This document shows, in pieces, positions 32,580-48,565 of a DNA stretch of 64,000 bases. The notes under the pieces are model-generated. The model was not told where the DNA came from and did not search any database. It worked only from the letters and a program-made list of their open reading frames with translations. Origin of the DNA: a virus. Its lineage: Duplodnaviria > Caudoviricetes. Numbering within the stretch: the stretch's first letter is position 1; every line of letters begins with the position of its first letter. A program made the translations under genes and the position numbers. The stretch lies in the IMG/VR virus record IMGVR_UViG_3300027255_000165, one strand, 5' to 3'.

Positions 32580-33698
32580 TTATACCTTAAAGAATGAGTT
32601 TGTTTCAAGTTGATGAAGGGCTGCTGCGACAACCTGATGCATATCGTAATAACGATACGTTCCTAATCTTCCTCCAAAGTGAACAGTTGACATTCCTTCA
32701 GCTGAAGCCTTGTATTTTTGATAGATTTGACCATTGGTGTCATCATTCACTGGATAAAAGGGTTCAACATCTTGTGTGTATTCTTGGGGGAATTCCCAGC
32801 TAACATACGTTTTCTTTTGACCATGGTCATCAAACCACTTATGTTCAATGATACGAGTATGTGGAGTTTCTTCGTCCGTATAATTCATGACTGCGCACCC
32901 TTGATAATTATCTTGATCCATCAATTCATTGTGCCACTTAACTGATTTGTATTCCAATAAACCGTGTTTATAATTGAAAAACTTATCGATGGGACCGGTG
33001 TAGATGACTTTCAGCGCTTTGGCGTTCCAATAGTCTTTTTCTGAAAGATAGTCTTCGTTTAATCGAACGTCAATACCATTTAATAATTTTTCAAAGATCT
33101 GAGTGTACCCTCCAATTGGCATTCCCTGATAACGATCATTAAAGTAGTTGTTATCGTATGTGAATCTTACAGGTAGACGTTTGATGATTGCAGCTGGAAG
33201 TTCTGTAGGATCTTTGCGCCATTGTTTGGCAGTGTAACCCTTAATCAATCTTTCGTATACATCTTTTCCTACCAATGACAGGGCTTGTTCTTCGAGATTA
33301 GTAATTTTACCCGTGAATCGTTGTTTTTCAATCATATCTTTTGCCTCTTCCGGAGAGGATACGCCCCAGATCTGATTGAATGTGGTCATATTGAATGGCA
33401 AATTGTAGATACTATTCTTATAATTTGCAATTACGTTATGACTGTACTGTCTAAACTCGGCGAAATTATTGACATAATCCCAGACCCGTTTATCATTAGT
33501 GTGAAAGATATGAGCTCCATACCGATGTACATGCACGCCTTCAACGTTTTCAGTGTAACAGTTTCCGCCGATATGTGCCCTTTTATCAATCACCAAAACT
33601 CGATAACCTTGTTTGGTTAACTCGTGGGCACATATCGAACCATACAGTCCGGCTCCAACGATTAGGAAATCATACTTATCTTGAGATACCGAAGACAC
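32580..33698 (-). CDS. glf: UDP-galactopyranose mutase
   Basis: GAGLYG, HIGGNC, YGAHIFHT, RYQGMP.GGY, FGGRLGTYRYYDMHQV. Confidence 0.97.
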   Translation of the reverse strand: MSSVSQDKYDFLIVGAGLYGSICAHELTKQGYRVLVIDKRAHIGGNCYTENVEGVHVHRYGAHIFHTNDKRVWDYVNNFAEFRQYSHNVIANYKNSIYNLPFNMTTFNQIWGVSSPEEAKDMIEKQRFTGKITNLEEQALSLVGKDVYERLIKGYTAKQWRKDPTELPAAIIKRLPVRFTYDNNYFNDRYQGMPIGGYTQIFEKLLNGIDVRLNEDYLSEKDYWNAKALKVIYTGPIDKFFNYKHGLLEYKSVKWHNELMDQDNYQGCAVMNYTDEETPHTRIIEHKWFDDHGQKKTYVSWEFPQEYTQDVEPFYPVNDDTNGQIYQKYKASAEGMSTVHFGGRLGTYRYYDMHQVVAAALHQLETNSFFKV

Positions 33699-34995
33699 CT
33701 GTTAAAGTAATTGGATTTGGTGTTGTTTCACCGTTAGACAAAACGAAGTCAACTGATTTTTCTGGCGTTGATTGAACAACTGGAGGTGTTGTGCCTTCAA
33801 GATCATCAATGATGTATTGAGGAATCTGATCGTGAACTCTCTTCATCCATTCGATCTCATGATCGTAAGATTTGCCCAAGTATCGTAGAGATTTGATGTG
33901 AAGCCAGAATGGGTGGGCAGACGTATTATAATACGCAGAGTTATGAATCAAGAACGTATATGTTGGGAAGGGATTCTTTCTCTTACTGTCCCTTAGCATT
34001 TTGAATGATAGCTTCATCATCTCTTCATGCCTACCTAATTGCTCTAATAATTCGGTTTGAGCCATCATTGCCTCATTTCGAGCGGGATTAAATTCAAGCG
34101 CCTTTTCATAAGTTTCAAGAGCCATGTCATATTTTCCCATGAATTTATACGCATTACCAATTAAGAACATTGCATAGTAACCCATGTCATCGATATTGGC
34201 TGGCTTTTGGGTTTGAGAATAATTATGAAGCTTGTTCAAGTACATATTAAAATAGAAGATACAGCGACGGGCATATTCTCTTGCGTGATCTATGCCAAAT
34301 GGAAATTCATCAGGATTACCATAAGAATCACTATAAGATTTACCAATGTACCATAAATGATAATCATCTTCAAGAACCTTGTTTGAAGGTACTTTATCGC
34401 TTTCTAATTCGAGAGCATCTTTCAAAAACTTCATTGGAGCGAACCAGGTTTCACCATCATTGGTAATAACCTGACGGAATCCAGTTTCAAGATTAACTCG
34501 ATTAAATCCTTCACCGATCACGGGTAGGTGAATTGTTTCGTGGCGCTTATCGTGAGCAAAGAACCATGGACGGTGAGCGTTCCACATCCATGTACGATAA
34601 TACATTGCATCTCCTGGATCGGCAACAATGTTAAATGAATCGATCATCGTATCGTTAAATGGACTCCAATCGAAATTTTCATCAACCGAAAGCTGCTCGT
34701 CGGCATCCATACGTAAGATCCAATCGCATCCATGATCCGCCTCTAGAGCAGTTTGAAGAGTGTGATCTCGGTTCCAACCTGGATAATCCCAATCAATTTC
34801 ATAGGTAAATCCTGGAACTCCATTTTGAGCAAAGAAATCATCAATGATTTGTTTGGTGTTATCGATTTTACCGTTACATTGAATTACGTAATAGTCAACG
34901 TAACCTACAACGGATTTTAACATTCTGGTGATAGTGGCTTCTTCATTGCCCACCATCGCATTTAAACAGATTTTTACGTTCTTTGGCTTTTTCAT
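33676..34995 (-). CDS. GT2-like glycosyltransferase with TPR
   Basis: ICLNAMVGNE...I.RML.S, WILRMDADE, C-terminal TPR. Confidence 0.75.
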   Translation of the reverse strand: MKKPKNVKICLNAMVGNEEATITRMLKSVVGYVDYYVIQCNGKIDNTKQIIDDFFAQNGVPGFTYEIDWDYPGWNRDHTLQTALEADHGCDWILRMDADEQLSVDENFDWSPFNDTMIDSFNIVADPGDAMYYRTWMWNAHRPWFFAHDKRHETIHLPVIGEGFNRVNLETGFRQVITNDGETWFAPMKFLKDALELESDKVPSNKVLEDDYHLWYIGKSYSDSYGNPDEFPFGIDHAREYARRCIFYFNMYLNKLHNYSQTQKPANIDDMGYYAMFLIGNAYKFMGKYDMALETYEKALEFNPARNEAMMAQTELLEQLGRHEEMMKLSFKMLRDSKRKNPFPTYTFLIHNSAYYNTSAHPFWLHIKSLRYLGKSYDHEIEWMKRVHDQIPQYIIDDLEGTTPPVVQSTPEKSVDFVLSNGETTPNPITLTGVFGISR

Positions 34996-36668
34996 TTTCG
35001 AGTAATTAGATAATTATTAAGCACCAATGCGTATAAGTTTCTTTTTAGGAACGTATTTATTGCATTGGTAGGAGTTTCAACGATAGGTTCTTCAGGTCCA
35101 TTGAATGAAGTGTTCAACACGACTGGAACGCCTGACACTTCATTGAATTTACTGATTAGCTTGTGATATTTTGGATTGTTATCTGGTGTAACTGATTGAT
35201 AGCGGGCAGTTCCGTCAATGTGAGTAACTGCTGGAATCTTGCTTCTCCATTCTGGTTTAACTTCAGTGGTAACCAGCATGTATGGAGAATACGTATCAAG
35301 TTCGAAGATTTCGGCCTGTTTTTCATATAGCACCGAAGGCGCAAATGGGCGATACCATTCCCTGAGTTTGATTTCACTATTAATGTACTGTGGCATCCAA
35401 GCCTGTTTTGGTGAGGCCAAGATTGAACGACAACCTAGAGCACGTGGACCCATTTCGGAACCCTTCTGAAACCATCCGATGACTCTATTTTCATTCAATA
35501 AATTAGCAACAGTATCTACCATTTCATCTTCTTCAAGTTTTATTACATTAATTGAAGAAGAATAAAGGTCAATTGCATCATTGATTTCTTGTTCAGTATA
35601 TGTTTTTCCAAGATACGCTGTCATCCATCCTTCAGAAGTTGGAATTTTACCCATCAATACATGCGAACCGTAATATGCACAGCCGATGGGAATACCACTG
35701 TCATCAGCAGGAGGCATGAAGTATGCATTATCGTAAATACCTTCTCTAATAATAAGCTCATTAGTGTTACAATTTAAGAAAGATCCGCCAGCTACACAAA
35801 TGTTATTTGAATTGGTTATTTTCTTTGCCATCTTTGCAAGGTGAAGGGACGACAATTCCTGTTCACGCTGATAGAGGCCTGCAACGTTAGCCTTTTGTTG
35901 AAAGTTTGATTGCCATGTTACTTCGGGATAAAAGGTCTGCACCATAACGTACATATCTTCATCTTCAAATCTCGTTTGAATCGGGTGGGAATCAACCCAC
36001 TCCTTATTAGCATAAGATGCAAGCCCCATTAACTTTCCAGCTTGCCACGTATTGTGAACGGGGTTATATACAAGTTGCTTTGAACCCATTCCATATTTAT
36101 GACCAATTGATGTTTCAGCTTCAGGATCTCCTTCTCTAAAAGGATAAACCACCCACTTACAATATGATTGATTGATGGTTTGATCTTTTCTTGAAAAATG
36201 ATAAATTGAGTAACCTTCTGCTAAATGTTCTCCTGGATTCAACCCTGATTCATCGACCTTAAACCAATCTTTAATTGGGGTTTCGTCATTATAAACTGAT
36301 CCCATTGCGTCTGCAACTACAACTGCAGCCTCATCAAAGTCAGAAGCACAGAAAGTTGAATAGGCATGAGCCAGATGGTGAGGAACAAAGTTTAATCTGT
36401 CTCTTGACATACCGGTTTCAATCTCAAACTCTTCTGGAGCCCTATTGATGTCTTCGGTGGTGTTATAGATAAACGCATCTATGTCTTTATACTCCAGGTT
36501 TAATGCCTCTAGACAATATCTCATTGATTCTAGTGGTAAACTATCGGAATGATCAGTTTTAATGCGAGTAACTCTTTCATTGCTGATTGCAACTTTAAGA
36601 TCTCCGTTGATTGTGATTGCAGCTCCTCGATTGTGACCAATCGAGATTCCCATTACTATGTTATTCAT
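34992..36668 (-). CDS. NodU/CmcH-family carbamoyltransferase
   Basis: HHLAHAYS, GKLMGLASY, PPADDSG, E.GPRALG.RS, RE.YRPFAP, LNTSFN..EEPIVETP. Confidence 0.92.
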   Translation of the reverse strand: MNNIVMGISIGHNRGAAITINGDLKVAISNERVTRIKTDHSDSLPLESMRYCLEALNLEYKDIDAFIYNTTEDINRAPEEFEIETGMSRDRLNFVPHHLAHAYSTFCASDFDEAAVVVADAMGSVYNDETPIKDWFKVDESGLNPGEHLAEGYSIYHFSRKDQTINQSYCKWVVYPFREGDPEAETSIGHKYGMGSKQLVYNPVHNTWQAGKLMGLASYANKEWVDSHPIQTRFEDEDMYVMVQTFYPEVTWQSNFQQKANVAGLYQREQELSSLHLAKMAKKITNSNNICVAGGSFLNCNTNELIIREGIYDNAYFMPPADDSGIPIGCAYYGSHVLMGKIPTSEGWMTAYLGKTYTEQEINDAIDLYSSSINVIKLEEDEMVDTVANLLNENRVIGWFQKGSEMGPRALGCRSILASPKQAWMPQYINSEIKLREWYRPFAPSVLYEKQAEIFELDTYSPYMLVTTEVKPEWRSKIPAVTHIDGTARYQSVTPDNNPKYHKLISKFNEVSGVPVVLNTSFNGPEEPIVETPTNAINTFLKRNLYALVLNNYLITRK

Positions 36669-37975
36669 TTGTAAATGTAATTAAGCTTTTGTTCTTCTTC
36701 AAAATACTTTTGATTAGGCGTGACGATTTGAAATAGAGTTGAAGTTTTGGTTTCTTCGTTCCAATCCCAATCTACACAGCCGAGTTGTTCGATTCGATTG
36801 TGAATCTGTTGGTTATAATGGTCTCGAATCAAACGTGATTTTCTATTAATGTCAGTTGCATTGTTATCAACCGTTGAGTTACGATTATTGTACTGTAAGT
36901 ACAACATTTTCTTGATGTGAATCATTTTTGTTTCTAGAAACGTTCTAATGATTAACTCAAAATCATCAGCCACAGAAATGAATCGATTATGCTTTCCAAT
37001 TTTATTGTACACGTCTTTACGCCAGATTCGAGCATGGTTTGGCATACCAATGTTGAATCGAATAGTTCTGGGATTGATGTCAGGATATGAGTGACACAGG
37101 TATTCAGTACCATTCCATTCAACCCATTCGTGACCACCATATCCCCATACAAATCCGTTTTCAGGGTGTGCATACCAATACTCTTCAGGTCCAATGGTGC
37201 TAGTGTACTTTCTCATTTCACCGTCTTCAAATGGTTCTGCGACGTCAGTGTAGACAAAACCAGCGTCAGGATATTGATTGATGGCCTTTATGGTTTCAGC
37301 AAACAATTCTGGTAAGAAAAAGTCATCATGATCTAGTTCAGCGAACCAGTTTCCATTGGCCATTGAACATGCTCTATTTTTAACTTCACCGATATTACCG
37401 CCAGAAATTGGAGTTATCTTATAAGGTCTAACTCGATAGTCTTTTTTGGCCAATTCTTGTAGAATGGTCCATGTTTCAGTGTGATCTTCTGGAGAATCAT
37501 CAATTACGATCCATTCCCAATTGGGATAGGTTTGATTTTTAATACCTTCGTAAGTTCGATACAATCTATCTCCCGTCTTATAAGCACCTGTGAAAACTGA
37601 AAAATAAGGTCGATTTGGATCATCAAAAACCTTGTCTAATGAAAAGCAAGCCCAATTAGTTGCATGTGAAACAATATCGTTTGCAAGTTGAAAATCAACA
37701 GGTAGTTGACTATAATGACACCACTTAGTGGTGATAAAAGTTTCATTGATGCGAGACACAAGTTGTGTCCAATCCTGTCGATTACCGCCGATGGTAACAA
37801 TAACATCAGGTCGATGGCGAGCAAAATCCTCAGCAAATGAAGAAGAGTCTGGATACGAATAACACAGAACATTCTCCTGAAGGTTTTCTTCATGATAGAG
37901 TGATGTCAATAAACGATGCTCACCAACTCGATCCCAACCATAAATAAGTGCAGAGGGTAACCCTACTTTGATCAT
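36665..37975 (-). CDS. GT2 glycosyltransferase
   Basis: WEWIVIDDSP, ELDHDD, DDFEL..RTF. Confidence 0.88.
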   Translation of the reverse strand: MIKVGLPSALIYGWDRVGEHRLLTSLYHEENLQENVLCYSYPDSSSFAEDFARHRPDVIVTIGGNRQDWTQLVSRINETFITTKWCHYSQLPVDFQLANDIVSHATNWACFSLDKVFDDPNRPYFSVFTGAYKTGDRLYRTYEGIKNQTYPNWEWIVIDDSPEDHTETWTILQELAKKDYRVRPYKITPISGGNIGEVKNRACSMANGNWFAELDHDDFFLPELFAETIKAINQYPDAGFVYTDVAEPFEDGEMRKYTSTIGPEEYWYAHPENGFVWGYGGHEWVEWNGTEYLCHSYPDINPRTIRFNIGMPNHARIWRKDVYNKIGKHNRFISVADDFELIIRTFLETKMIHIKKMLYLQYNNRNSTVDNNATDINRKSRLIRDHYNQQIHNRIEQLGCVDWDWNEETKTSTLFQIVTPNQKYFEEEQKLNYIYK

Positions 37976-38024
37976 ATTGAATCTATTTACAGGGTTATAC
38001 TACAAAAAACTGAAAAGTTTAGAT

Positions 38025-38089
38025 TAGAGGGGACATTGTTAGGGGCTCCCACCCACTCGGCTTTCGACTCCAATGTTATTTCCCCTCTA
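38025..38089 (-). ncRNA. Candidate small structured RNA element
   Basis: TAGAGGGG/CCCCTCTA and ACATTG/CAATGT helices closing GAAA/GGGA-looped hairpins; no U-tract. Confidence 0.35.
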
Positions 38090-38107
38090 GGGTGAAATGC
38101 AAGGTAT

Positions 38108-38293
38108 TTATTCACGAAACCGGGCCTTCTTGATGTTCTTTCCCTTGCGACTACGAACCTTACCTTGCTCTAAGATAACTGATCCGCAAACATCACATTT
38201 TAGAACACCTGAATGTGTTTCATGATAATCAGAAGATCCACATTTTGAACAGTGGGTCTCGTTTCCAATATCTTCAAAATTCCATTTCGGCAT
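38108..38293 (-). CDS. Small zinc-ribbon protein
   Basis: CSKC...CDVC. Confidence 0.65.
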   Translation of the reverse strand: MPKWNFEDIGNETHCSKCGSSDYHETHSGVLKCDVCGSVILEQGKVRSRKGKNIKKARFRE

Positions 38294-38624
38294 CTTCTAC
38301 GTCCTCAATTAAGTCAATCCATTCCTCATGTCCTCTCTCAAGGGCTTGAGTTTTGAATTCAATATTAGACATTAGGCAAAGACGAACTTCCTTGCCAAAA
38401 TAATCATCTACCAAATTCATGAATTCAAGACATCTATTGAAATCTTGATAACGAAGAGCCATAATCTCTCCATCTCCAAATTCAATTTTTAAGACCCATG
38501 GTGCTGCACCCGTTCTGACATCAATTCTTTCGCGATACATTTTTCCAACGCTTTTTATTTTATATACCGCACTTTGAAAGAGTTTACAAACGAATCCAAT
38601 TGTACCACGCTCTTTCATGTGCAT
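38274..38624 (-). CDS. Hypothetical protein
   Basis: 116-aa ORF; true start likely internal. Confidence 0.55.
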   Translation of the reverse strand: MHMKERGTIGFVCKLFQSAVYKIKSVGKMYRERIDVRTGAAPWVLKIEFGDGEIMALRYQDFNRCLEFMNLVDDYFGKEVRLCLMSNIEFKTQALERGHEEWIDLIEDVEDAEMEF

Positions 38625-38781
38625 AGTATAATATGGATTTCGTAACTATTTCGATCATACCGATGGCTAAACCTGTACTAAACTCTCCGGTGACCAACCA
38701 ACTCAGAAAAATGGTATCTAAGGTACCGATGATTCTCCATGAGATTGTCTTCAGTATGTGTCTAATTTTATCTTTGCTCAT
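38584..38781 (-). CDS. DUF2061 membrane protein
   Basis: RH..KTISWRI.GTLDT..L.W..TG...G..I...E..TK..LYY.HER.W. Confidence 0.88.
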   Translation of the reverse strand: MSKDKIRHILKTISWRIIGTLDTIFLSWLVTGEFSTGLAIGMIEIVTKSILYYAHERAWYNWIRL

Positions 38782-39164
38782 AACTCTCCTCGTTTCTTCA
38801 TTTCCTGTCTGATCTTGGTGGCAGATATTTCACCAACTTCTGTCGGTGGAACGTGTTCAACTACATCGTATCCCACACCTCGACCGAAATTGATCGATGA
38901 AATATCTGGAATAACCGTCACAATCACTTTGCCCTGTTCCATTAGATCATACAATTCGGTTTCAATGTTCATTTGAACCTGTGATGCAGCGAATGGGTTC
39001 TTCTCGTCTGGTTCCATATCTCGAATGGCGATCCAAACTTTGTTACCTTGTCCCAACTGTTGGTCAATTAACCATCTGTGACCTCCATGCCATGGCTGCC
39101 AACGACCAATGTAAAGTGCCCATCCATCTTTTGAGGGCTTGTCTGCTTTTGTAATGTATTTCAT
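38778..39164 (-). CDS. HIGH-motif nucleotidylyltransferase (cytidylyltransferase-like; possible minimal sulfate adenylyltransferase)
   Basis: GRWQPWHGGH, ISATKIR. Confidence 0.75.
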   Translation of the reverse strand: MKYITKADKPSKDGWALYIGRWQPWHGGHRWLIDQQLGQGNKVWIAIRDMEPDEKNPFAASQVQMNIETELYDLMEQGKVIVTVIPDISSINFGRGVGYDVVEHVPPTEVGEISATKIRQEMKKRGEL

Positions 39165-39209
39165 ATTATAAAATTAAATCCTGTGTGTCTATCTAATGGA
39201 TTTACAATC

Positions 39210-39662
39210 CTATCTAATGGCCTCTAAGATTTTAGTTAGAGTTTGTGAAGGTATGTCGTCAGTTGTGTCGACATCTACGAAGTTTTGTTGGGGCGGTTGG
39301 TAACCCTTGACCGCAAAGTGATCTCTTTCTCGAGATTCAGTAGTGTGGACGTAGAATTCAATCATTCCATCTCCAATCACCTGCTTAAACTCTTCTCGTT
39401 GATCTAGGTATGGAGATACTAATGATACGATCACAATCTTACCTTGATTATGCAGGTAATGAGCAATCTTTTGAGCTGCATCGATGTTCTTAATTCGACC
39501 ATTCATAGAATAGTCTTTGTTTGTAAACAAATCTCTCATTTCATCACCATCAATTCTGAAAACCTGATCTTCAGGAGTTCCGTGATCGATAATGAATTTC
39601 TTTAATCTGTCTGCTAGTACGGTCTTACCGTGTGATGGTTGTCCAGTGAACCAATATATCAT
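39210..39662 (-). CDS. cysC: Adenylyl-sulfate kinase
   Basis: WFTG.P..GKT.LA, IDGD.MR, VSLVSPY...RE. Confidence 0.88.
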   Translation of the reverse strand: MIYWFTGQPSHGKTVLADRLKKFIIDHGTPEDQVFRIDGDEMRDLFTNKDYSMNGRIKNIDAAQKIAHYLHNQGKIVIVSLVSPYLDQREEFKQVIGDGMIEFYVHTTESRERDHFAVKGYQPPQQNFVDVDTTDDIPSQTLTKILEAIR

Positions 39663-40543
39663 ATAAAATTACTAAAGTACCTTTCGCCTCGATCACAAAG
39701 AATGGTAACTGCATTCTTGTAATCATTATCTCGGAGCCATTCAAAAGCTCCTCTAACGTTTGCACCAGCTGAAATGCCTAAGAAAAGACCTTGTGTTTTT
39801 GCTAAGTACATTGCATGCTGAATTGCACAATCGGTTGGAACAGTGACAACTTGGTCAACTTCATTTAGATCAACCAAGAATTTTGAACCGTCGCCAATGC
39901 CTTGAATTCCATGTAAACCTGGTTGACCACCACTCATAACTGGAGATTCAGCGGGTTCAATTGCCACAATCTTGATGTTTGGAAAAGTCTCTTTGATACG
40001 CTTACTTGCTCCCATCAGAGTTCCACCGGTTCCAGTTCCAAGAATGAATACGTCAGGTGTTACACCCTCGGCTTTTAGCTGCTCAACTATTTCTAAACCA
40101 GTAGTGTTGTAATGCGCTTCAATGTTCCATTCAGAATGAAATTGGTTACCATTAAACCATCCATTCTTTTCGCACAACTCGTTTCGGGTTTGAATCGCCA
40201 GGTCAAAATTACCTGCGTCAACTTCAATCAGTTTAGCGCCATAAACCTGGAACATTTTCTTACGTTCTTCGCTCATGTTACTTGGCATCACAATCACGCA
40301 CTTGTATCCGAGGTGGGCTGCAAACATTGCAAATGCAATGCCAGTGTTACCTGAAGTTGCCTCGCAAATTGTATCACCTTTCTTCAATTGCCCTGATTTC
40401 TCGGCTTGTTGAATAATATGAAGAACTGGACGATCTTTAACTGATCCACCAGGGTTCATGAATTCTGCTTTGCCCCATACGGTCAAATCAGCCTCCTCCA
40501 ATTTGATCATTGGAGTGTTACCTACGTTTTCAACAAGTCCCAT
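39659..40543 (-). CDS. cysK: Cysteine synthase
   Basis: VGNTP, NPGGSVKDR, EATSGNTGI, GTGGT, GIQGIG. Confidence 0.93.
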   Translation of the reverse strand: MGLVENVGNTPMIKLEEADLTVWGKAEFMNPGGSVKDRPVLHIIQQAEKSGQLKKGDTICEATSGNTGIAFAMFAAHLGYKCVIVMPSNMSEERKKMFQVYGAKLIEVDAGNFDLAIQTRNELCEKNGWFNGNQFHSEWNIEAHYNTTGLEIVEQLKAEGVTPDVFILGTGTGGTLMGASKRIKETFPNIKIVAIEPAESPVMSGGQPGLHGIQGIGDGSKFLVDLNEVDQVVTVPTDCAIQHAMYLAKTQGLFLGISAGANVRGAFEWLRDNDYKNAVTILCDRGERYFSNFI

Positions 40544-41128
40544 TTAGTGCTGAGTGTCGAAGAAGAATGTTTGGAACAGACGACCATCATACATATCCTT
40601 ACCGAAGTAGTCAAGCGAAGTATGAAATAAATCTCCCGGGTAAAGGATCAATCGATTGTATACGTTACCAACGAAGTTGGTCATTTCCCACTTCGTCATG
40701 TCCTGTGAATCTTGGCCAATTAGGGCTAAACCTTCTTCGTTATAAGATCCGTCATCTTTTCGAGGGGCGGTTGTCCAACCCGTCGCCTTATGGCGGAAAA
40801 GACCCGTTCCACCTGAAAGTGGAGCATCGGGTGTTAAGTAACAAACTCCTGCCCATTTAGTGGTTTGATCGGCGTGAATCCACGAACGATCCCTTTGTGT
40901 GGTGTATTGAAACGCACCAGTATATTCATACTGTTCCCATGCTGTGATTTTACCAGCGTAAGGAGAAATGATAGCCTGAATTAAGTTTTTAACTCCTTCG
41001 TTATAAACCTGTACGGTGCGTTGGCCTGGGTAATTACCTCGAACACCAAATTCCATACCTAGAGCCATTTCTCTAACGGCATCTACGTCATTATAAAAAT
41101 CGTCGACAACTATTGCGCTTACTTGCAT
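40544..41128 (-). CDS. DUF6445-like 2OG-Fe(II) oxygenase
   Basis: VVDDFY, NYPG.RT, WIHAD, GT.LFRH, YNRLILY.G..FH. Confidence 0.78.
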   Translation of the reverse strand: MQVSAIVVDDFYNDVDAVREMALGMEFGVRGNYPGQRTVQVYNEGVKNLIQAIISPYAGKITAWEQYEYTGAFQYTTQRDRSWIHADQTTKWAGVCYLTPDAPLSGGTGLFRHKATGWTTAPRKDDGSYNEEGLALIGQDSQDMTKWEMTNFVGNVYNRLILYPGDLFHTSLDYFGKDMYDGRLFQTFFFDTQH

Positions 41129-41129
41129 T

Positions 41130-42050
41130 TTAATCTTGTTTTTGATATACGTTAAAGCTACGAATGATCATTTCACTTTCATCAGGGTTTTCAGGATAGT
41201 CCATGTGAAGACCGTGATTGAAAATAACATACTGTCTTGCGTCAGCTCTATTGAACCATTGTAGTACGTTATGTGATTTTGTTTCAAAAATCAATAGACC
41301 ATCGTAGTAAATTCTAATAAAATCCTTTTCCCAGTGACAAACATATTGGACCAATCTTTTGGTTGCATCTGCAACTGGAACATCGTAAGATGAATAATCT
41401 TCTTTGTTATTTTGTTCTATTTGACCATAATGAATGTTAGGCCTAATTCTTCTATTAGGCCTTTTAAACCAACGATCTAATAGAGTGTATGAATCGTATT
41501 TTGGGCCCATGTGAGAGTATCCTTCAAAGACATCAATTTCAGGTGGCCATGTATCATAACCTGAAAACCAGAATGCAGGCCAATATGACTGTCCTTCTGG
41601 AAGTTGAATCCATGCTTCAAACCAACCGTATTGCCAAACCTGCTTTGAAGAAACAAAACCAACGCCAGTTGGAATTGTAAATTCTTCTGGCATCGACTCA
41701 TTCTGTCTCCAACTTGGAAGATCAGACTTTTTCCAAGTCTTAGGAGTGTTTTTAAGGGCCAACACCAGACCTCGAGTATCAATGTAACTTAGCGTTCCAT
41801 CGTTATCATAGTATTGGTGTAAAGAACCCGGGTGAAAGTCTCCCCATGGCATTGCATAACGCCACTCATCTTTGTTCAAGCGTGTTAAGAAGTAATCTGA
41901 AAACACTTTATCATAACCTTCAGGTGCTTGAACCTTACGTTCTTCACCTTTGTAATTTGAATAGTGCCTTTCAGCCCTAAACAATTTAACCATGTTCAAT
42001 AGAACTTCTTTGAACGGATGTTTTAGAAATTGAGAAAAGTTTAAGTTCAT
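41130..42050 (-). CDS. GH16 glycoside hydrolase
   Basis: YGWFEA.IQLP....WPAFW; EIDVFE catalytic motif. Confidence 0.88.
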   Translation of the reverse strand: MNLNFSQFLKHPFKEVLLNMVKLFRAERHYSNYKGEERKVQAPEGYDKVFSDYFLTRLNKDEWRYAMPWGDFHPGSLHQYYDNDGTLSYIDTRGLVLALKNTPKTWKKSDLPSWRQNESMPEEFTIPTGVGFVSSKQVWQYGWFEAWIQLPEGQSYWPAFWFSGYDTWPPEIDVFEGYSHMGPKYDSYTLLDRWFKRPNRRIRPNIHYGQIEQNNKEDYSSYDVPVADATKRLVQYVCHWEKDFIRIYYDGLLIFETKSHNVLQWFNRADARQYVIFNHGLHMDYPENPDESEMIIRSFNVYQKQD

Positions 42051-42060
42051 AGATTATTTA

Positions 42061-42486
42061 TCAACCTTCCCTTTCAGCAACTCTTTTACGTAATTCGGAT
42101 GATGAAAAAGAGTGATCTCTTTTGTTAAAAATTAATTCAATACCGCGATTGTTACAAATCTGTCGGCCTGTGAATTCTTTTTCGCGATATTCTTCACCTA
42201 AAATTCTAACATCAATTTTAAAGCTTGCTAGAATGTCTTCAAGATCTTTTTCGGTTGCATAAGGAATGATCTCGTTAACCCACTTACAACCATCTACTTG
42301 AATATACCTTTCAACGATAGATTGCACTGGTTTATTCTTTTCAGGACGGTCAATCGTAGGATCCGTCTGAAGAGCAATGATCAGATAATCACAATGCTGC
42401 TTAGCTTCTTCAAGCATTTTAACGTGCCCTGCATGAAACAGGTCAAACGTAGATGCAGTGATGCCAACTATTTTCAATTCTTTCAT
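42061..42486 (-). CDS. Glycerol-3-phosphate cytidylyltransferase-like (TagD)
   Basis: FDLFHAGHV, KPVQSIVERY, SSSELR. Confidence 0.85.
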   Translation of the reverse strand: MKELKIVGITASTFDLFHAGHVKMLEEAKQHCDYLIIALQTDPTIDRPEKNKPVQSIVERYIQVDGCKWVNEIIPYATEKDLEDILASFKIDVRILGEEYREKEFTGRQICNNRGIELIFNKRDHSFSSSELRKRVAEREG

Positions 42487-42812
42487 GCTTCAATCTCTAC
42501 TCGCTCGACTGATTCTAAACTCTGAAGAATGTCAACCATGTTAGCCGAAATGGGCTCTTCAGTTTCAGCGTTCAACTCCACTGCGATCTTACACTCAAAA
42601 TTGTTTTCAGAGTGTTGAAGGTTAACAGCCTCTTTAGCTGCTTCATACGCTGCTGTAAAACCTTCAGAACGAACATGATAGACTGACCTTCTACCCGTTT
42701 CAGGGCAATGAAATTCAAATCTAAACAAACGCTTACCAATTCTATTCTGAGTTGCAATAACGTACATTGCGATTCCTGTTGCCGTGATGGCAATTAACAT
42801 GATTGTGACCAT
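42483..42812 (-). CDS. Hypothetical TM-anchored protein
   Basis: N-terminal TM. Confidence 0.6.
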   Translation of the reverse strand: MVTIMLIAITATGIAMYVIATQNRIGKRLFRFEFHCPETGRRSVYHVRSEGFTAAYEAAKEAVNLQHSENNFECKIAVELNAETEEPISANMVDILQSLESVERVEIEA

Positions 42813-43180
42813 TACTTTCTTAATTCAAAGCCCTTTTCGGCTATTCTTTCTAATAGTATCTCTCGATCTCGCTTTGTTTCAACGTAATCGTTCATCAGTT
42901 CATCTGGCACACCGTTCCAGGCATCAGTCCAATCACTGACGTTAAATCCACGGTACAGGGCCTCCCATCTAAGAGAGTTGTAACGATTCAACAGGTACTC
43001 TAATTTATTATAGAAGAATTTGACGTGACCTTGGCCGAGTGTGAATTCTTCAGGAATACCATTCATATTGTACTTACCCTGACGAATGACGTTTGGAATA
43101 CGCTTGATCTCGCGAAGTTCTGCCAATAACAGTTTATCGGGCAATTCTTCAGGTTTGATGCCAGTATTAATTCTTGTCAT
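42812..43180 (-). CDS. denV: Pyrimidine-dimer DNA glycosylase (T4 endonuclease V family)
   Basis: MTRIN..I.P.EL.D..LLAE.RE..RIP, FTLG.GHVKFFYNKL. Confidence 0.93.
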   Translation of the reverse strand: MTRINTGIKPEELPDKLLLAELREIKRIPNVIRQGKYNMNGIPEEFTLGQGHVKFFYNKLEYLLNRYNSLRWEALYRGFNVSDWTDAWNGVPDELMNDYVETKRDREILLERIAEKGFELRK

Positions 43181-43236
43181 TGGTCAATACATAAACGAAT
43201 GGAACATCTCCAAATGTCGTGGTAGTGTAATAGTAA

Positions 43237-44322
43237 TTAGAGTTCAAGGATACCAGTGTTTAAGGGGTTGTTGATGTTATCGATCCACTCGTCGTCAATA
43301 TCTTTCAAGAATGCGATGTACAACTTGATACAGTTTTCAACGTCATCTCGATGAACCATCTCGACTGTGGTGTGCATGTACTTCAGCGGTGAGGCCAAGA
43401 TTGCAGTTGGAGTGTTTTCCAAAAAGAAAGCCATCGTGTCGTTGCCGTAAGATCCAACATGATGTTGTAATGGCAGCTCATTGGCTTTAGCAACCTCTTT
43501 CAGCTTGTTTAGAATGCCACGGTGATTCTGTGAAGTGTACTCTAATGAAGGACCTTTACCACCTTCAACTGGTCCGTGCTTGGCTTTATCCATCTTTGGG
43601 TGAGCCACGTTGTGACAAACATCATGCACTAGGGCCAAATCAGCTTGCAGTTCTTTTGCAATCTTCTTTGCACCGTACAAGCCAACTTCTTCTTGAACCG
43701 AGTTAACCACGTACAGGTCAAAATCCAACTTCTCACCATCAAGCGCCATGCGCTTTAGGACCTCAGCAATAATATAACCTCCAATCTTATTGTCCAACGA
43801 ACGGCCAACGTAGTAATCTCCAATCATGCTGAATTGTGTATCGAACGTAGCCAAGCATCCAACTTCAACTCCCAATTCAGCAGCTTGCTCGTCTGAAGAA
43901 ACACCTACATCAATCCACAATTCATGCGGTTCGTAACCTTTAGAAGTACGTTCGGTACGTGTGTGGATCGCAGGCCAACCAAACACACCTTTAACCTGTC
44001 GACCGTCGTGCGTATGAATGATAACTGTTTTAGAAGGGGCGATCATATTGTCTGAACCTCCATGGTGACGAACGCGGATGTAGCCGTCTTTTTCAATGTG
44101 TGTAATGATCCATGAGATCTCATCGCAGTGTGCTTCAATCACAACTTTCTTGGCTCCTTCTTTACCGCAACGGTAAACACCATAACCAGTGCCGTATGCG
44201 TCCATGTGAAGTGAATGTGAAAAGTCTGAAATGTAACGCATCCACATCTTTTGACCTTCTGTTTCCTGTGCAACAGGAGCGTAAGCATTTAAGTACGCTT
44301 CTAAAAACTTATGACTTTTCAT
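43237..44322 (-). CDS. M42 family metallopeptidase
   Basis: EAHCDE, SLDNKIG, VQEEVG, DVCH, KYMHT..E. Confidence 0.92.
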   Translation of the reverse strand: MKSHKFLEAYLNAYAPVAQETEGQKMWMRYISDFSHSLHMDAYGTGYGVYRCGKEGAKKVVIEAHCDEISWIITHIEKDGYIRVRHHGGSDNMIAPSKTVIIHTHDGRQVKGVFGWPAIHTRTERTSKGYEPHELWIDVGVSSDEQAAELGVEVGCLATFDTQFSMIGDYYVGRSLDNKIGGYIIAEVLKRMALDGEKLDFDLYVVNSVQEEVGLYGAKKIAKELQADLALVHDVCHNVAHPKMDKAKHGPVEGGKGPSLEYTSQNHRGILNKLKEVAKANELPLQHHVGSYGNDTMAFFLENTPTAILASPLKYMHTTVEMVHRDDVENCIKLYIAFLKDIDDEWIDNINNPLNTGILEL

Positions 44323-44326
44323 TATG

Positions 44327-44710
44327 TTATATGTTAAAGAATGAGTAAAGAACCGTTACGATTGCGGCGGCCGCAGCTAAAGAAAGGATAGCGTTGACTA
44401 CCATTTCTGAGTATTGAACTTGGTTTGGAGTGCGACCTTGATTCCAATTAGCAAAAGGCTCTTCAATTAAGACAAAGATAGCTTCAGTTGGACCAAAACT
44501 TTGAAGCTCTAAACCACGCATTTCAAGAATATCATCCAATAATTCGGGCTCATTCTCAACCATGTACGATACTTCATCGTATTCCTGAGTTGTCCAATCC
44601 TGGGATGGATCTAAGTTCAAAAAGCCCATGTAATCTTCTGAGCTTGAATCAAATTGATAATCGCTACGAATGCGATCGATTAGGGTGTTCAAAGTCTTTA
44701 AGTCTCTCAT
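44327..44710 (-). CDS. Hypothetical protein with C-terminal TM
   Basis: Behind a class M promoter. Confidence 0.65.
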   Translation of the reverse strand: MRDLKTLNTLIDRIRSDYQFDSSSEDYMGFLNLDPSQDWTTQEYDEVSYMVENEPELLDDILEMRGLELQSFGPTEAIFVLIEEPFANWNQGRTPNQVQYSEMVVNAILSLAAAAAIVTVLYSFFNI

Positions 44711-44765
44711 CAGTTAATCCTTTAAATGTATTGATTATACTATGAGATCGTAAAAAGTTTCAAAC

Positions 44766-44800
44766 AAAAAGAGTCCAGATTTAAGTAAACCTGGACTCTA
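44766..44800 (-). terminator. Terminator after tRNA-Asn
   Basis: AGAGTCCAG/CTGGACTCT plus T5. Confidence 0.7.
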
Positions 44801-44805
44801 GATTG

Positions 44806-44879
44806 CTCCCTCTGCTGGACTTGAACCAGCGACCCTCTGATTAACAGTCAGATGCTCTAACCAACTGAGCTAAGAAGGA
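44806..44879 (-). tRNA. tRNA-Asn(GTT)
   Basis: Cloverleaf; anticodon loop CTGTTAA; no CCA. Confidence 0.93.
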
Positions 44880-44898
44880 ATTCTTGCATGGCATGCTG

Positions 44899-44969
44899 TT
44901 ACCCCGGATAGATTCGAACTACCATTAAGTGGACCAAAACCACTTGTCCTGCCATTAGACGACGGGGTA
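44899..44969 (-). tRNA. tRNA-Gln(TTG)
   Basis: Acceptor TACCCCG/CGGGGTA; loop TTTTGGT. Confidence 0.92.
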
Positions 44970-44974
44970 ATATG

Positions 44975-45048
44975 TAGTCCTGACTGGACTCGAACCAGTG
45001 ACCCTTCGCGTATCAGGCGAATGCTCTAACCAACTGAGCTACAAGACT
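44975..45048 (-). tRNA. tRNA-Ile(GAT)
   Basis: Cloverleaf; loop CTGATAC. Confidence 0.94.
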
Positions 45049-45075
45049 AAAAGAAATTATATAACTCTTTTTTTG

Positions 45076-45148
<73 letters not shown>

Positions 45149-45207
45149 TGGTTATTCCGAAGAACAGTATTTATATACTAGATCTAAGGGTTGTTTCATT
45201 TGATAAT

Positions 45208-45240
45208 AAAAAAGCCCGGTCAAAGACCGGGCTTTAAAAA
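45208..45240 (-). terminator. Terminator after the 45260 gene
   Basis: AAAGCCCGGTC/GACCGGGCTTT plus T-run. Confidence 0.8.
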
Positions 45241-45259
45241 TAGTTAGTATGAAGTTAGA

Positions 45260-46966
45260 TTATTGAATATACTTGTAAATTCTAAGTTCAACAGTAGCTC
45301 CGGCAGCGTTAAGTGAAGTCTCAACACCTGCAACAATTGGACCTGTAAGAGCTGCATGCCTCGTAGGGTCAATAGAATAATTACCAGCGACAATTTCACC
45401 ATCTGCAATCGTTTCAAAATACTTCCCACCGTAACCGGTAAAATACACCGAGTAAGGTACTATGTTCTTAGAACCGTCAAATTGGTGATTAACTCCAGTG
45501 AATTTAATGTATCCTCCCGGTGCAATGCTTAACCATTCAGCTTGAACAGCTCCAGGAATATCACCGACACCCGCTGCTTTATAGGTACCTGCGCCGGATC
45601 CAGGCATAATACCTTTAATGCTTATGTCAGTGTGGTTGTGTACAATCAGAGTGTGAGGGCCTGTTCCTACGTTAACTTCAGTATATGTTGTAGGGAAATA
45701 AGATCCTGCAACTGAACCCGCAGGTGGCATTGGATCTGGTAGAGTAGTTGGTCTGTATACATTTACAAGTGTAACGTCAAAATGCGCAGGCGATGTAATC
45801 GCAATTCCGCCAGTGGCATTGCCAAGTGTGAATAGATTATTTCCAGAAACTGCTGAAATAAAGCTTATGTTGTTTTGTGCTCTGTTAGTTGATGCATAAA
45901 TCCATTTACCTGACGCATTTGCAAGCTCCAAGTTCATAGTGAATTTGTTAATATCGCTCAAAGGTACGTCAGTTAGAGTAACTGAATGACCAGGTCTAAT
46001 TGGAAGCCATGGAGCCGCAGTATTGCCGTTTCCCAAAGGAGTACCGCTAGGAACGCCATAAGACGCTAACCATGCCTTACCAGCTCCTGATCCAATCGCA
46101 GCATCTTCAATCCACACCTTTACAATAGGTTCAGTTGCTGATGCGTTAGTGATTGTAAGAGAGTGTCCACCCGCTGCACCCAAAGAATATGTAGGTTCTA
46201 CAGGAGCTGTTTGGAACTTAAGTGTTGTAGGAAGAGATGTATTAAGTACACCTGACGCTTCAACCACAACTAACATAGGATTGTAGCCCTGTCCAGTGCC
46301 TCCACCTGTAAGACTTAAATTAGTGTGCCAGATATCTCTGGCTATCCAACATACTGCATAATCACCAGAAGGCTGTTCAAGTCTAACAATATCGCCAGCT
46401 CTTAGATCAGCAAATGCAGCTGTAGCTGCGTTTTTAGTAAAAAAGATGCTAAATGAGTTAACCCCATTCACAGCTGGATAAGCCATAGTAGCCCATATGT
46501 TAGAGACCAGATCATTAGTTGAAGCTGTGAATCCACCGTCAGACCATGGTCTGAATTCTACTGTGTTGTCCCATCCTGCAGGACCTGGAGCAACAGCTGC
46601 AGCCCATGAAGAATAAAGACCAGCTGCGGTTTCAGCCCATACTTTTGCGGCAACAACGTCAGAGAAAAGAGGTTGACCAAGTCTACCTGCAAAGTGATTA
46701 ATCATTTCAAGAACTTTAGCATCACCTGCTCCGCCGTCTGACCAGAACATCGGGTGAGCATCGGCTTCGTTCGTGTAACCTAGTGTGAAAGAATCCGACC
46801 AAATTGTCGTTTCACCTGAAATTTCAGCAGGTGGCATAGCACCTTTGCCTAGAGCAAGTTCGGCTGGCATTGCACCCGTTCCGTCCCACTCGTAAAGTTT
46901 GTTTGCTTTAGCGTTAACGCTGCCTAGACCTGGATTAGAAGATCTAAAATATAATGGATTTGGCAT
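45260..46966 (-). CDS. 568-aa Gly/Ala/Thr-rich beta-type protein (putative virion structural/adhesin) with internal domain duplication
   Basis: GATATATA promoter upstream; segments G.HSLTITN...WL.I.PG.SV...V and G.HTLIVHN...WL.I.PGG.I...V repeat. Confidence 0.7.
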   Translation of the reverse strand: MPNPLYFRSSNPGLGSVNAKANKLYEWDGTGAMPAELALGKGAMPPAEISGETTIWSDSFTLGYTNEADAHPMFWSDGGAGDAKVLEMINHFAGRLGQPLFSDVVAAKVWAETAAGLYSSWAAAVAPGPAGWDNTVEFRPWSDGGFTASTNDLVSNIWATMAYPAVNGVNSFSIFFTKNAATAAFADLRAGDIVRLEQPSGDYAVCWIARDIWHTNLSLTGGGTGQGYNPMLVVVEASGVLNTSLPTTLKFQTAPVEPTYSLGAAGGHSLTITNASATEPIVKVWIEDAAIGSGAGKAWLASYGVPSGTPLGNGNTAAPWLPIRPGHSVTLTDVPLSDINKFTMNLELANASGKWIYASTNRAQNNISFISAVSGNNLFTLGNATGGIAITSPAHFDVTLVNVYRPTTLPDPMPPAGSVAGSYFPTTYTEVNVGTGPHTLIVHNHTDISIKGIMPGSGAGTYKAAGVGDIPGAVQAEWLSIAPGGYIKFTGVNHQFDGSKNIVPYSVYFTGYGGKYFETIADGEIVAGNYSIDPTRHAALTGPIVAGVETSLNAAGATVELRIYKYIQ

Positions 46967-47032
46967 TTTAACTTAAATGTTTTTTGTTTCTGTATATATC
47001 ACATTTAAGACGGTAAAACTTCATCGAGATGA

Positions 47033-47060
47033 AAAAACCCGGTCAAAAAGACCGGGTTTG
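47033..47060 (-). terminator. Terminator after tRNA-His
   Basis: AAACCCGGTC/GACCGGGTTT plus T-run. Confidence 0.8.
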
Positions 47061-47117
47061 ACGGGGGACCGCGTAAAAGCCGTTGCGATCGGCTTGTTGA
47101 TACGCAATTTATATATC

Positions 47118-47195
47118 TGGGGTGACTGATCGGAATCGAACCGACGACCTCTTGAACCACAATCAAGCGCTCTAACCAACTGAGCTACAACCACC
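47118..47195 (-). tRNA. tRNA-His(GTG) with encoded G-1 and CCA
   Basis: G+GTGGTTG/CAGTCAC C CCA; loop TTGTGGT. Confidence 0.95.
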
Positions 47196-47201
47196 ATTTA
47201 C

Positions 47202-47430
47202 ATTAACACTAGTAACCGGGATTCTGTTTTATTCCACCATTAATCTAAGCCACTACCTTGCCCAGGCTGCTCACCCCTATGGACTATTACGTGTTGCATC
47301 CTCGGTGGTATAACGGTTATAACCTTTCCAAAACTCTGTTTTTTTACTAGTTTTGGAAAGGTTATAACCTTCCACCTTAAGCAGTGATGTCCCGAGTTTC
47401 CTCTCTTTCGAGCGATGGATCAGTGTTAAT
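47202..47430 (-). ncRNA. rnpB: RNase P RNA (type A-like, ~229 nt, S-domain replaced by a 21-bp hairpin)
   Basis: P4 strands GAGGAAACTCGGGAC and AACAGAATCCCGGTTAC; P1 ATTAACACT/AGTGTTAAT; P2 TCCATC/GGTGGA; P3 CTC-GAAA-GAG; P5 CATC/GATG; P6 CTGCT/AGCAG; P7 GGTGG/CCACC; P15 CAC/GTG with AGGTA. Confidence 0.85.
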
Positions 47431-47433
47431 TAT

Positions 47434-47637
47434 TTATTCAAAGCTAACGTGGCTGTGAATAGATGTAATTGTACAATGTGGATCAAACTGACATGTTTGT
47501 TTAGAAGCCCACGTTGAAGTGTCAACTAAATCATGATTAGAAGAGCATGAAGTAGATAACATTAGTGTTGCCAATGAAATTGACGCGATAGATAGTGTTG
47601 AAAAAATCATCACTAAAAAGTTCTTAAGATGTTTCAT
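47434..47637 (-). CDS. Small lipoprotein-like protein
   Basis: Hydrophobic signal ending LSTSC; GATATATAAG upstream. Confidence 0.65.
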   Translation of the reverse strand: MKHLKNFLVMIFSTLSIASISLATLMLSTSCSSNHDLVDTSTWASKQTCQFDPHCTITSIHSHVSFE

Positions 47638-47712
47638 AGTCCCAATGTTATTTTAATGTTATTAACTTATATATCAGTATTAACATATTGTTTACATTGG
47701 GTTAGATCTTAG

Positions 47713-47787
47713 TAGCGGGTGTGGGAGTCGAACCCACGTCGTTTGGCTTATGAGACCAGGCTGGAACCACCTCCAGTCCAACCCGCA
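47713..47787 (-). tRNA. tRNA-Met(CAT), initiator-like (1:72 mismatch)
   Basis: TGCGGGT/ACCCGCT, loop CTCATAA; lacks the three G-C anticodon-stem pairs. Confidence 0.85.
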
Positions 47788-47794
47788 ATGTTAG

Positions 47795-47867
47795 TGGACT
47801 CGGGCAGAATCGAACTGCCGACACATGGATTTTCAGTCCATTGCTCTACCAACTGAGCTACGAGTCC
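47795..47867 (-). tRNA. tRNA-Phe(GAA)
   Basis: GGACTCG/CGAGTCC; loop CTGAAAA. Confidence 0.95.
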
Positions 47868-47871
47868 ATGG

Positions 47872-47990
47872 GGAAGAGGCTCTGGGTCTTTCAGGGTTTC
47901 TGATAGATGATTTGTTTACGCTCTGATTACTCCAAACCCTTTTTCACCATTTTAACACCATCATCTATTACAGCTTGCACTGCCTCTTCC
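47872..47990 (-). ncRNA. Candidate ~120-nt structured RNA between tRNA-Tyr and tRNA-Phe
   Basis: Closing helix GGAAGAGGC/GCCTCTTCC, inner helix ATAGATGAT/ATCATCTAT, complementary AGGGTTT/AAACCCT. Confidence 0.6.
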
Positions 47991-47993
47991 TTG

Positions 47994-48075
47994 TGGGAGT
48001 AGAAGGACTCGAACCTCCGATGTCGTTAGACGATTGATTTACAGTCAACTGCAATAGCCACTATGCGATACTCCC
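47994..48075 (-). tRNA. tRNA-Tyr(GTA)
   Basis: GGGAGTA/TACTCCC; loop CTGTAAA; long variable arm. Confidence 0.94.
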
Positions 48076-48079
48076 ATTG

Positions 48080-48152
48080 TGATCCCTCCGGGGCTAGAAC
48101 CCGGGACCCGTACATTAAAAGTGTACTGCTCTACCAACTGAGCTAAAGAATC
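48080..48152 (-). tRNA. tRNA-Lys(TTT)
   Basis: GATTCTT/AGGGATC; loop CTTTTAA; T-loop TTCTAG variant. Confidence 0.92.
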
Positions 48153-48173
48153 ATTACCACCAAGTCAAAGACC

Positions 48174-48368
48174 TCAGACATCCATCTGCAATTCGTGAAA
48201 GCACTCTTTGCAAAGGAACATCATGTTGTGTTCGTTACGGACATCTGCATCAAAAGGATTCTCAGTCCAAACTCCCAACTTTTGTTCGCAACTTTCGCAA
48301 GTATCAACCAGGTGGCCGAACATTTGCTTAGCTGTTTCTTCGTTTGTCATCATCGTTTTCATAGTCAT
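48174..48368 (-). CDS. Small zinc-finger-like protein
   Basis: CESC...CKEC; class E promoter upstream. Confidence 0.6.
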   Translation of the reverse strand: MTMKTMMTNEETAKQMFGHLVDTCESCEQKLGVWTENPFDADVRNEHNMMFLCKECFHELQMDV

Positions 48369-48491
48369 AAATTTAATTAAGGTTTACTGTCTCCGTTAAA
48401 TTTGAACCACTATCTGATGATTACTGGGCTAATATACAACAAAAACTTGACCCGGTAAAACTTTTACGAAACTTTTTTACGGTTGCGATTG

Positions 48492-48565
48492 AGGTGAGTA
48501 GTGGATTCGAACCACTGAACGTCTGTTTTGCAAACAGCTCCCTTAGGCCACTCGAGCAACTCACC
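48492..48565 (-). tRNA. tRNA-Cys(GCA)
   Basis: GGTGAGT/ACTCACC; loop TTGCAAA; starts directly after the terminator U-tract. Confidence 0.92.

Follow-up and report, generated by a model that had tools for sequence, protein, structure and literature searches.

A phage-encoded, type A-derived minimal RNase P RNA with a single long helix in place of the specificity domain

RNase P RNA has, to our knowledge, so far been treated as a strictly cellular gene. In bacterial type A RNAs, represented by the Rfam model RF00010 and by M1 RNA of E. coli (gene rnpB), the L15 GGU strand binds the 3' end of the tRNA, and P2-P3, J18/2 and J2/4 bind protein in bacterial holoenzymes. Outside one archaeal family and a set of engineered constructs, no RNase P RNA without a specificity domain (S-domain) is known to us (PMC3579882, PMC5839562). 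The archaeal family, type T, has an archaeal-type core with a 3-bp P2, a shortened P15 and a contracted P5/P15 linker, and it works with archaeal protein subunits; in Caldivirga P9 and P10 give way to an extended P7 stem whose loop is not of the GNRA type, and in Pyrobaculum and Vulcanisaeta a GNRA L9 is kept, which contacts P1 (PMC3579882). Among the engineered constructs, the catalytic domain of the E. coli RNA alone (Eco CP RPR; Mao et al. 2018) cleaves substrates; P18 adds nothing once the S-domain is removed, and P6-type pairing is important (PMC5839562). Reduced bacterial RNAs are also known from CPR bacteria, in which RNase P RNAs without P12-P14 and P18 were found only below Rfam cut-offs (PMC8172020). 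In phages, theta (HDV-like) ribozymes adjoin tRNAs and have been proposed to free the phage from the tRNA-processing RNases of its host (PMC10879173). A phage-encoded RNase P RNA is not described in the full-text literature that we searched, including a 2024 RNase P review, and Rfam 15 holds no family for such a minimal form. The RNA analysed here is apparently a member of an undescribed phage RNA family, within which its special feature is a long perfect arm.

The window, by which we mean the whole 64-kb stretch of DNA analysed, comes from a large marine phage deposited in IMG/VR as a record of 170,561 bp, which CheckV estimates to be ~70% complete. Outside the window the record codes for a tail sheath, a head maturation protease, tail fibres and a ribonucleotide reductase, and we regard it as a phage because of the first three of these. 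One protein of the window (689 aa) contains a type IX secretion CHU_C domain, which points to a putative host among the Bacteroidota. The gene for the mini RNase P RNA runs from 47431 to 47196 on the minus strand (~236 nt), its 5' end being the start of P1 and its 3' end being predicted at 47196. An earlier note on this DNA had placed the RNA here without naming a strand; its coordinates and helices hold, and the strand is now assigned. No ORF of at least 50 aa overlaps the RNA. The gene shares its strand with an array of 11 tRNA genes, all on the minus strand and spanning 31141-48565, and is flanked by tRNA-Met (47787-47712) and tRNA-His (47194-47118), likewise on the minus strand. P1 is followed by a 6-nt 3' tail, directly after which tRNA-His begins; both its G-1 (47195) and its CCA are encoded, so that with G-1 it covers 47118-47195. 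An intrinsic terminator on the same strand (47035-47059; a 10-bp stem with six G-C pairs and a U tail) closes the unit after tRNA-His. CCA is encoded in tRNA-His only, and the other 10 of the 11 tRNAs have a single C after the discriminator, followed by A-rich sequence.

At the default gathering threshold an Rfam scan gave no match at this locus. In a permissive cmscan, RF00010 aligned over model positions 1-367 to 47431-47197 on the minus strand with 46.2 bits (E 5.2e-13 when the region is scanned, 2.6e-14 over the complete 170,561-bp record), a score that is under half the gathering score of 100 bits. The idea that a covariance model would recognise the locus is thus borne out by a match over the full model, though not at the 100-bit cut-off. 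The bacterial type A model was the best match within the RNase P clan, and lower-scoring clan matches were dropped. Both strands at the locus fold far better than shuffled sequence because of a 21-bp hairpin, the minus strand with z = -6.1.

The catalytic-domain helices P1-P3, P5, P7 and P15-P17 and the P6 pseudoknot are all present; every helix listed in the earlier note, including both P4 strands, was found where it had been placed, on the minus strand. P1 (47430-47422 / 47210-47202) has 9 bp, P2 (47419-47414 / 47239-47234) has 6 bp, and P3 (47412-47403) is reduced to 3 bp with a GAAA loop. The 5' strand of P4, AAC(U)CGGG (47391-47398), lies inside GAGGAAACUCGGG with its bulged U at 47395 and pairs with the 3' strand CCCGGUU (47214-47220), which lies inside ACAGAAUCCCGGUUA and is preceded by J2/4, ACAGAAU (47221-47227); P4 with its bulged U is accordingly flanked by GAGGAAA and ACAGAA. 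Compared with the E. coli sequence, two pairs of P4 are swapped. P5 (47389-47386 / 47300-47297) has 4 bp and P7, GGUGG/CCACC (47376-47372 / 47308-47304), has five pairs, while the P6 pseudoknot CUGCU/AGCAG (47384-47380 / 47271-47267) has its 3' strand in the loop of P17. P15 (47293-47291 / 47253-47251) closes the P15-P16-P17 element (47251-47293), which holds the L15 GGU (47255-47257). J5/15, GCAA (47294-47297), agrees with the Rfam consensus and holds the equivalent of E. coli A248, which contacts substrate residue -1. J18/2 reads UUAGAUUAAUG on the minus strand.

Two parts of a type A RNA are missing, as had been proposed. The S-domain is absent: the RF00010 alignment puts 33 nt for the 103 model positions that would hold P8-P14 and CR-II/CR-III, and no CR-II-like block was found in the RNA even with one mismatch allowed. 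P18 is absent too, 24 model positions being set against 0 nt. In place of the S-domain, the RNA has AA after the P7 5' strand, then a perfect 21-bp helix with a 13-nt loop, then GUUAUA.

Relatives of the RNA were not found by simple sequence similarity. A blastn search with the window RNA and two relatives against GenBank phages gave no match, the method being too insensitive for this family, and a search for homologous loci through the neighbouring 568-aa protein also found none. Exact 16- and 17-mer matches in IMG/VR to the two P4 strands were discarded as chance, since 0 loci had an Rfam match. Relatives were instead collected with a two-anchor pattern that combined both P4 strands, left the covarying positions free and set the anchors 148-178 nt apart, a spacing that excludes full-size RNase P RNAs. 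This pattern matched 25 loci in IMG/VR, 37 in metagenomes and 46 in bacterial and archaeal genome assemblies, and a shorter spacing added 10 further IMG/VR loci; by a back-of-envelope estimate, less than one chance match would be expected in IMG/VR.

The window RNA and 11 close relatives were aligned without regard to structure (A3; 12 sequences, mean column identity 86%). From this alignment RNAalifold, given no information on RNase P, recovered P1, P2, P5, P7 and P15-P17. With the full RNase P fold imposed, pseudoknots included, 97.4% of cells pair, compared with 32-48% when the partners are slid, and both sides change in 19 of 49 pairs, a number equalled by none of 500 shuffles. At least one compensatory pair occurs in every helix except the invariant 3-bp P3, P4 contributing an A-U/G-C exchange. 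P6 is paired in 100% of cells with one A-U/U-A swap, and the AAGGU of L15 is invariant in this 12-sequence clade. A covariance model built from the alignment (R1) matches the window at 47198-47433, a match that arises by construction because the window RNA is included. In all, R1 matches 52 RNAs among the loci collected, short forms and that of phage DLP6 included; these relatives had been gathered independently of R1, by the two-anchor pattern.

Fifty distinct family sequences were then fitted to the model structure (A4). In this alignment, which by its making leans towards the structure, 94.2% of cells pair compared with 35-47% for slid partners, both sides change in 36 of 37 pairs, and all aligned cells of P6 are paired. 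Two P4 pairs that the search pattern had left free on both sides show clean covariation: pair 36-216 is CG in 30 sequences, GC in 16, UA in one and UG in one, and pair 39-214 is AU in 26, GC in 13 and CG in nine, with one mismatch. All 50 sequences have the bulged U of P4, and J5/15 GCAA is near-invariant; the invariance of GAGGAAA and ACAGAA is partly by construction because the search pattern fixes both for most members. Covariation across phage homologues, named as a check in the earlier note, is thus seen in both alignments, and together with the covariance-model match it identifies the RNA as a type A-derived RNase P RNA. That it is a conserved, structured RNA derived from RNase P appears to us nearly certain. 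The sequence evidence further supports the reading of a phage-encoded, type A-derived RNase P RNA in which the catalytic domain is retained and one helix stands for P8-P14; the stripped catalytic domain described in the earlier note thus stands, both on the full-model match and on the covariation.

The family extends to a phage in culture. Stenotrophomonas phage DLP6 (KU682439.2) gives a full-model RF00010 match of 54.7 bits over 249 nt at 105774-106022, in an unannotated gap, and the copy stops 3 nt before a tRNA-Arg; a complete 96-kb phage genome holds a 203-nt copy scoring 58.9 bits. Negatives of the RF00010 genome search carry little weight, as the search missed a clear family member in the record behind L010. 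Most pattern matches in bacterial genomes were rejected as family members and are cellular small type A RNAs. Many of these loci (L071-L116) are in Elusimicrobiota and Patescibacteria MAGs, where small type A RNAs with 148-178 nt between the P4 strands contain blocks resembling CR-II/III and lie outside tRNA arrays; two loci, L084 (with 11 tRNAs within 8 kb) and L097, resemble the phage type and seem to have been binned into MAGs. Separately, P3 is a second variable expansion site of the phage RNA family: in L032, L039 and L046 it has grown to ~55 nt upstream of GAGGAAA, compared with 3 bp and GAAA in the window.

The setting of the gene recurs among the relatives. In 12 of the 14 that have tRNAs in the stretch fetched, a tRNA (His, Arg or Lys) begins 1-3 nt past the 3' boundary of the RNA; L026 and L029 have a spacer of ~80 nt between RNA and tRNA, and in several relatives a tRNA also precedes the RNA. 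Each locus has one ribozyme and 10-24 tRNAs. A tRNA array on the same strand with a tRNA directly downstream was found in the window, in these 12 of 14 relatives and in DLP6.

The helix that occupies the place of the S-domain (47315-47369, minus strand) pairs 47369-47349 with 47335-47315, as the earlier description of a perfect 21-bp inverted repeat with the palindrome GGTTATAACC in each arm had it. Its A-rich loop AGUAAAAAAACAG (47348-47336, 13 nt) includes the segment AGUAAAAAAA, and the joining strand GUUAUA (47309-47314) lies between the arm and the 3' strand of P7. It is the only perfect hairpin of at least 18 bp in the 170-kb genome, and the 10-mer palindrome occurs once in each arm strand and nowhere else in that genome. 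Contigs from two runs show zero differences over the hairpin (X1, 47169-47415; X12, 47170-47391); as these runs may include the sample of origin, they demonstrate reproducibility rather than full independence. A third contig variant has paired changes at 47331/47353 and 47323/47361. A sister strain from the same samples has 12 nt for 47310-47368, reading GGUGGAAG-CGAAAGCG-UUUG-ACCACC on the RNA strand, which forms a GAAA-capped stub.

Across the family, the space between the P7 strands falls into length classes. Members with 16-22 nt have a stub of 2-4 bp, often with a GNRA tetraloop (GGG-GAAA-CCC, GAC-GAAA-GUC and GGC-GUAA-GCC are examples); others have 33-44 nt, or 51-64 nt forming long arms, and in those with more than 70 nt pieces of the S-domain are still present. 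A strand of the type G(U/A)UU usually stands 3' of the stub or arm, and equivalents of the joining strand (GUUAUA, GUUAGA, GAUUGCA or similar) occur in most members, beside stubs and arms alike. The clade of the window (L039, L041, L046, L056, L059, L068, L070) has arms of 61-63 nt with a conserved loop core, GUAAAAAAA. In L039, L041, L046, L056 and L070 the arm is 63 nt long, as in the window, and pairs imperfectly: 4 bp are followed by a 2-nt bulge, 3 bp, a 3x3 internal loop and another 10 bp. TTAAGG and GAGG delimit a span of exactly 81 nt, both in the window and in each of the relatives in which it was measured (L039, L041, L046, L056). L059 and L068 have a different 21-bp arm, likewise perfect: relative to the window, a C-G pair has become U-A, and both strands carry a 1-bp indel. 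The comparison indicates selection at the RNA level on the helix, on its length and on its loop.

P7 carries a variable element, in most members a stub of 2-4 bp, of which the 21-bp arm is the long form. The arm is dispensable, or at least interchangeable with a stub, because the sister strain has a GAAA stub at this place. The earlier proposal that a single hairpin replaces the specificity domain therefore holds as far as position is concerned, and fails for a fixed replacement domain. A necessary new specificity role for the arm is unlikely, since the hairpin is an expanded variable stub and the sister strain manages with a GAAA-capped stub alone. Templated correction of an imperfect palindrome is the most likely origin of the flawless pairing. 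Bacterial RNase III cuts perfect duplexes of about two helical turns; by analogy, the perfect 21-bp duplex would be an RNase III-type substrate, and the bulged arms of relatives would resist.

Taking these data together, we consider it probable that the RNA is a functional minimal RNase P RNA of type A descent that uses host RnpA and matures phage tRNAs, its catalysis being predicted from what the gene has kept. That it is an active minimal ribozyme is suggested by the loss of the S-domain and P18 along with retention of P6 with covariation, which matches the published results on the isolated catalytic domain. The RNA would pair with the RnpA of the host, as no RnpA gene was found in the phage record: a profile search with PF00825 found none in this record, ~70% complete, so that the missing part could still encode a protein cofactor. 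The absence fits a borrowed host RnpA without proving it. The holoenzyme would remove the 5' leaders of the phage's own pre-tRNAs and so add processing capacity during infection. Because the downstream tRNA abuts, cleavage by RNase P at G-1 of tRNA-His most likely generates the 3' end of the ribozyme itself; the host enzyme, a second copy of the RNA or possibly the ribozyme in cis could make this cut. The stub or arm may act as a structural brace through a loop-helix contact like that of L9 with P1 in full-size RNAs, rather than as a new reader of the tRNA elbow, and this would fit the GAAA stub of the sister strain. A dependence of the ribozyme on encoded CCA was also considered and dropped, as only tRNA-His encodes CCA; for the same reason an L15-CCA contact is impossible on the other ten primary transcripts as encoded.

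Several other readings of the locus were weighed. In the one that grants the arm the largest role, the RNA would be transcribed as a leader 5' of the tRNA and cut itself free in cis, and the 21-bp arm, constant in length and with a conserved A-rich loop in this clade, would be an RNA-only substitute for the S-domain, reaching the tRNA elbow or docking on P1 of the ribozyme; we regard this as rather unlikely, and if the arm did restore substrate positioning, RNase P would have a third natural means of measuring tRNAs, possibly independent of protein. A cis-only processing element, in which one self-cleavage frees the 3'-fused tRNA and no activity in trans exists, would account for the tRNA that lies within 1-3 nt of P1 in the window, in 12 of 14 relatives and in DLP6, and tethering could offset the weak substrate binding expected in the absence of an S-domain. 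Yet the downstream tRNA varies among relatives (His, Arg, Lys), L026 and L029 have their ~80-nt spacer, a single ribozyme accompanies 10-24 tRNAs at a locus, and a whole catalytic domain is a large cost for one cut that the host enzyme can make, so that we hold this reading to be unlikely. The RNA could also be a non-catalytic sponge or decoy that titrates host RnpA and thereby shuts down or redirects host tRNA maturation. Retention of the protein-binding regions P2-P3, J18/2 and J2/4 would suit such a role, as would the fact that no RnpA gene was found in the phage record; however, the substrate side is kept too, in J5/15 GCAA, the bulged U of P4, the P6 pseudoknot and, within the window clade, L15 GGU, and the position of the gene among tRNA genes, directly upstream of one, fits an enzyme beside its substrates. 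Because the substrate-contacting elements (J5/15 GCAA, and L15 GGU in the window clade) are conserved, a decoy is disfavoured and seems distinctly unlikely.

Two further explanations would deny the locus, or its arm, a role as RNA, and both are extremely improbable. A functionless, decaying fragment of a captured host rnpB would be expected to score below the Rfam threshold and to have lost large parts, as is seen here, but in the 52 related RNAs, which come from many phage contigs, the fold persists through hundreds of compensatory changes; these RNAs carry the same deletions everywhere (S-domain and P18) and differ so widely in sequence that they are not recent copies of a single one. As for the hairpin, assembly errors can yield flawless inverted repeats, a possibility raised in the earlier note, and the 10-bp palindrome in its arms could suggest a protein site at the DNA level, outside any RNA. 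Against an artefact, contigs of two runs, which may include the sample of origin, reproduce the hairpin without a difference, and homologous arms of the same length with compensatory changes occur in independent contigs; a DNA-level site is opposed by the lack of the palindrome anywhere else in the genome. The probable reading thus remains that of a minimal RNase P RNA acting with host RnpA on phage tRNAs.

How this RNA relates to the described systems can be stated closely. Bacterial type A RNAs have the same catalytic domain in the same order, and they share with the phage RNA the P4 and P6 pseudoknots, the bulged U, the GAGGAAA...ACAGAA flanks, J5/15 GCAA and L15 GGU. In contrast to them, the phage RNA measures 236 nt against a model of 367 positions, is without P8-P14, CR-II/CR-III and P18, has a P3 cut to 3 bp, scores 46 bits against a cut-off of 100 and resides in a phage tRNA array. 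Archaeal type T is the nearest natural analogue: both are natural RNAs with a normal catalytic domain and almost no S-domain, and the phage family shows both type T solutions, the long arm and the GNRA stub, on a bacterial-type core. Type T is, however, the only RNase P RNA of its cell and not of bacterial descent, whereas the phage RNA scores best with the bacterial model and, with its 6-bp P2, J5/15 GCAA and P6 pseudoknot, falls outside type T. With respect to Eco CP RPR, the P18 found dispensable is what the phage RNA has dropped and the P6-type pairing is what it has kept; that RNA is a laboratory construct of reduced efficiency, whereas the phage RNA is a natural conserved gene with a stub or arm on P7. 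The reduced RNAs of Mycoplasma fermentans and CPR bacteria are, like the phage RNA, bacterial, without P12-P14 and P18, and below the cut-off, but they serve as the only such enzyme of the cell and retain some of the S-domain, which the phage RNA has lost altogether. Theta ribozymes have an unrelated fold, cleave themselves and deal with 3' trailers, whereas the phage RNase P derivative is predicted to act at 5' ends.

A conserved phage family of bacterial-type RNase P RNAs reduced to the catalytic domain would mean that large phages supply, besides tRNAs, the catalyst for their maturation, and that the joint dispensability of the S-domain and P18, found in the laboratory, has a counterpart in nature. 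It would offer dozens of natural minimal ribozymes of 180-250 nt for structural and kinetic work, with long-arm and stub versions as ready-made comparison pairs, and since one copy resides in DLP6, a cultured phage of Stenotrophomonas maltophilia, function can be tested by ordinary genetics. The Rfam gathering threshold hides such phage mini RNase P genes from standard phage annotation.

Some features of the locus stand apart from this argument. A sigma-70 promoter scan at the locus gave scores no better than shuffles. The sequence TAGCTTTG at 47439-47446 on the minus strand, 8 nt upstream of P1, fits TAnnTTTG, the consensus of the Bacteroidota -7 promoter box; boxes of this type number 25 on the minus strand of the 64 kb, the one at 47439-47446 is not conserved in relatives, and several relatives have a tRNA directly upstream of the RNA at the place of the -7-like box. 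Contigs from RNA libraries (runs X20 and X22) were considered as evidence of expression and dropped, as contigs cannot show transcription, ends or strand; in run X22 the contig cover of the flanks equals that of the ribozyme locus. A 67-aa ORF (47434-47637, minus strand), whose N-terminus resembles a signal peptide or that of a lipoprotein, stops 3 nt short of the ribozyme, and in a relative from run X22 an extra 968 bases separate this ORF from the RNA. One contig of run X1 joins 47200 to 47434 and skips the whole ribozyme; it could stem from a strain that lacks the RNA gene or that carries a diverged version of it. More widely, genes for sugar modification abound in the part of the window from 3800 to 55800 (glycosyltransferases, a nucleotide-sugar epimerase, a Nol-like carbamoyltransferase), which also encodes a GH16 protein, an M42 peptidase, an ECF-type sigma factor and the 689-aa CHU_C protein.
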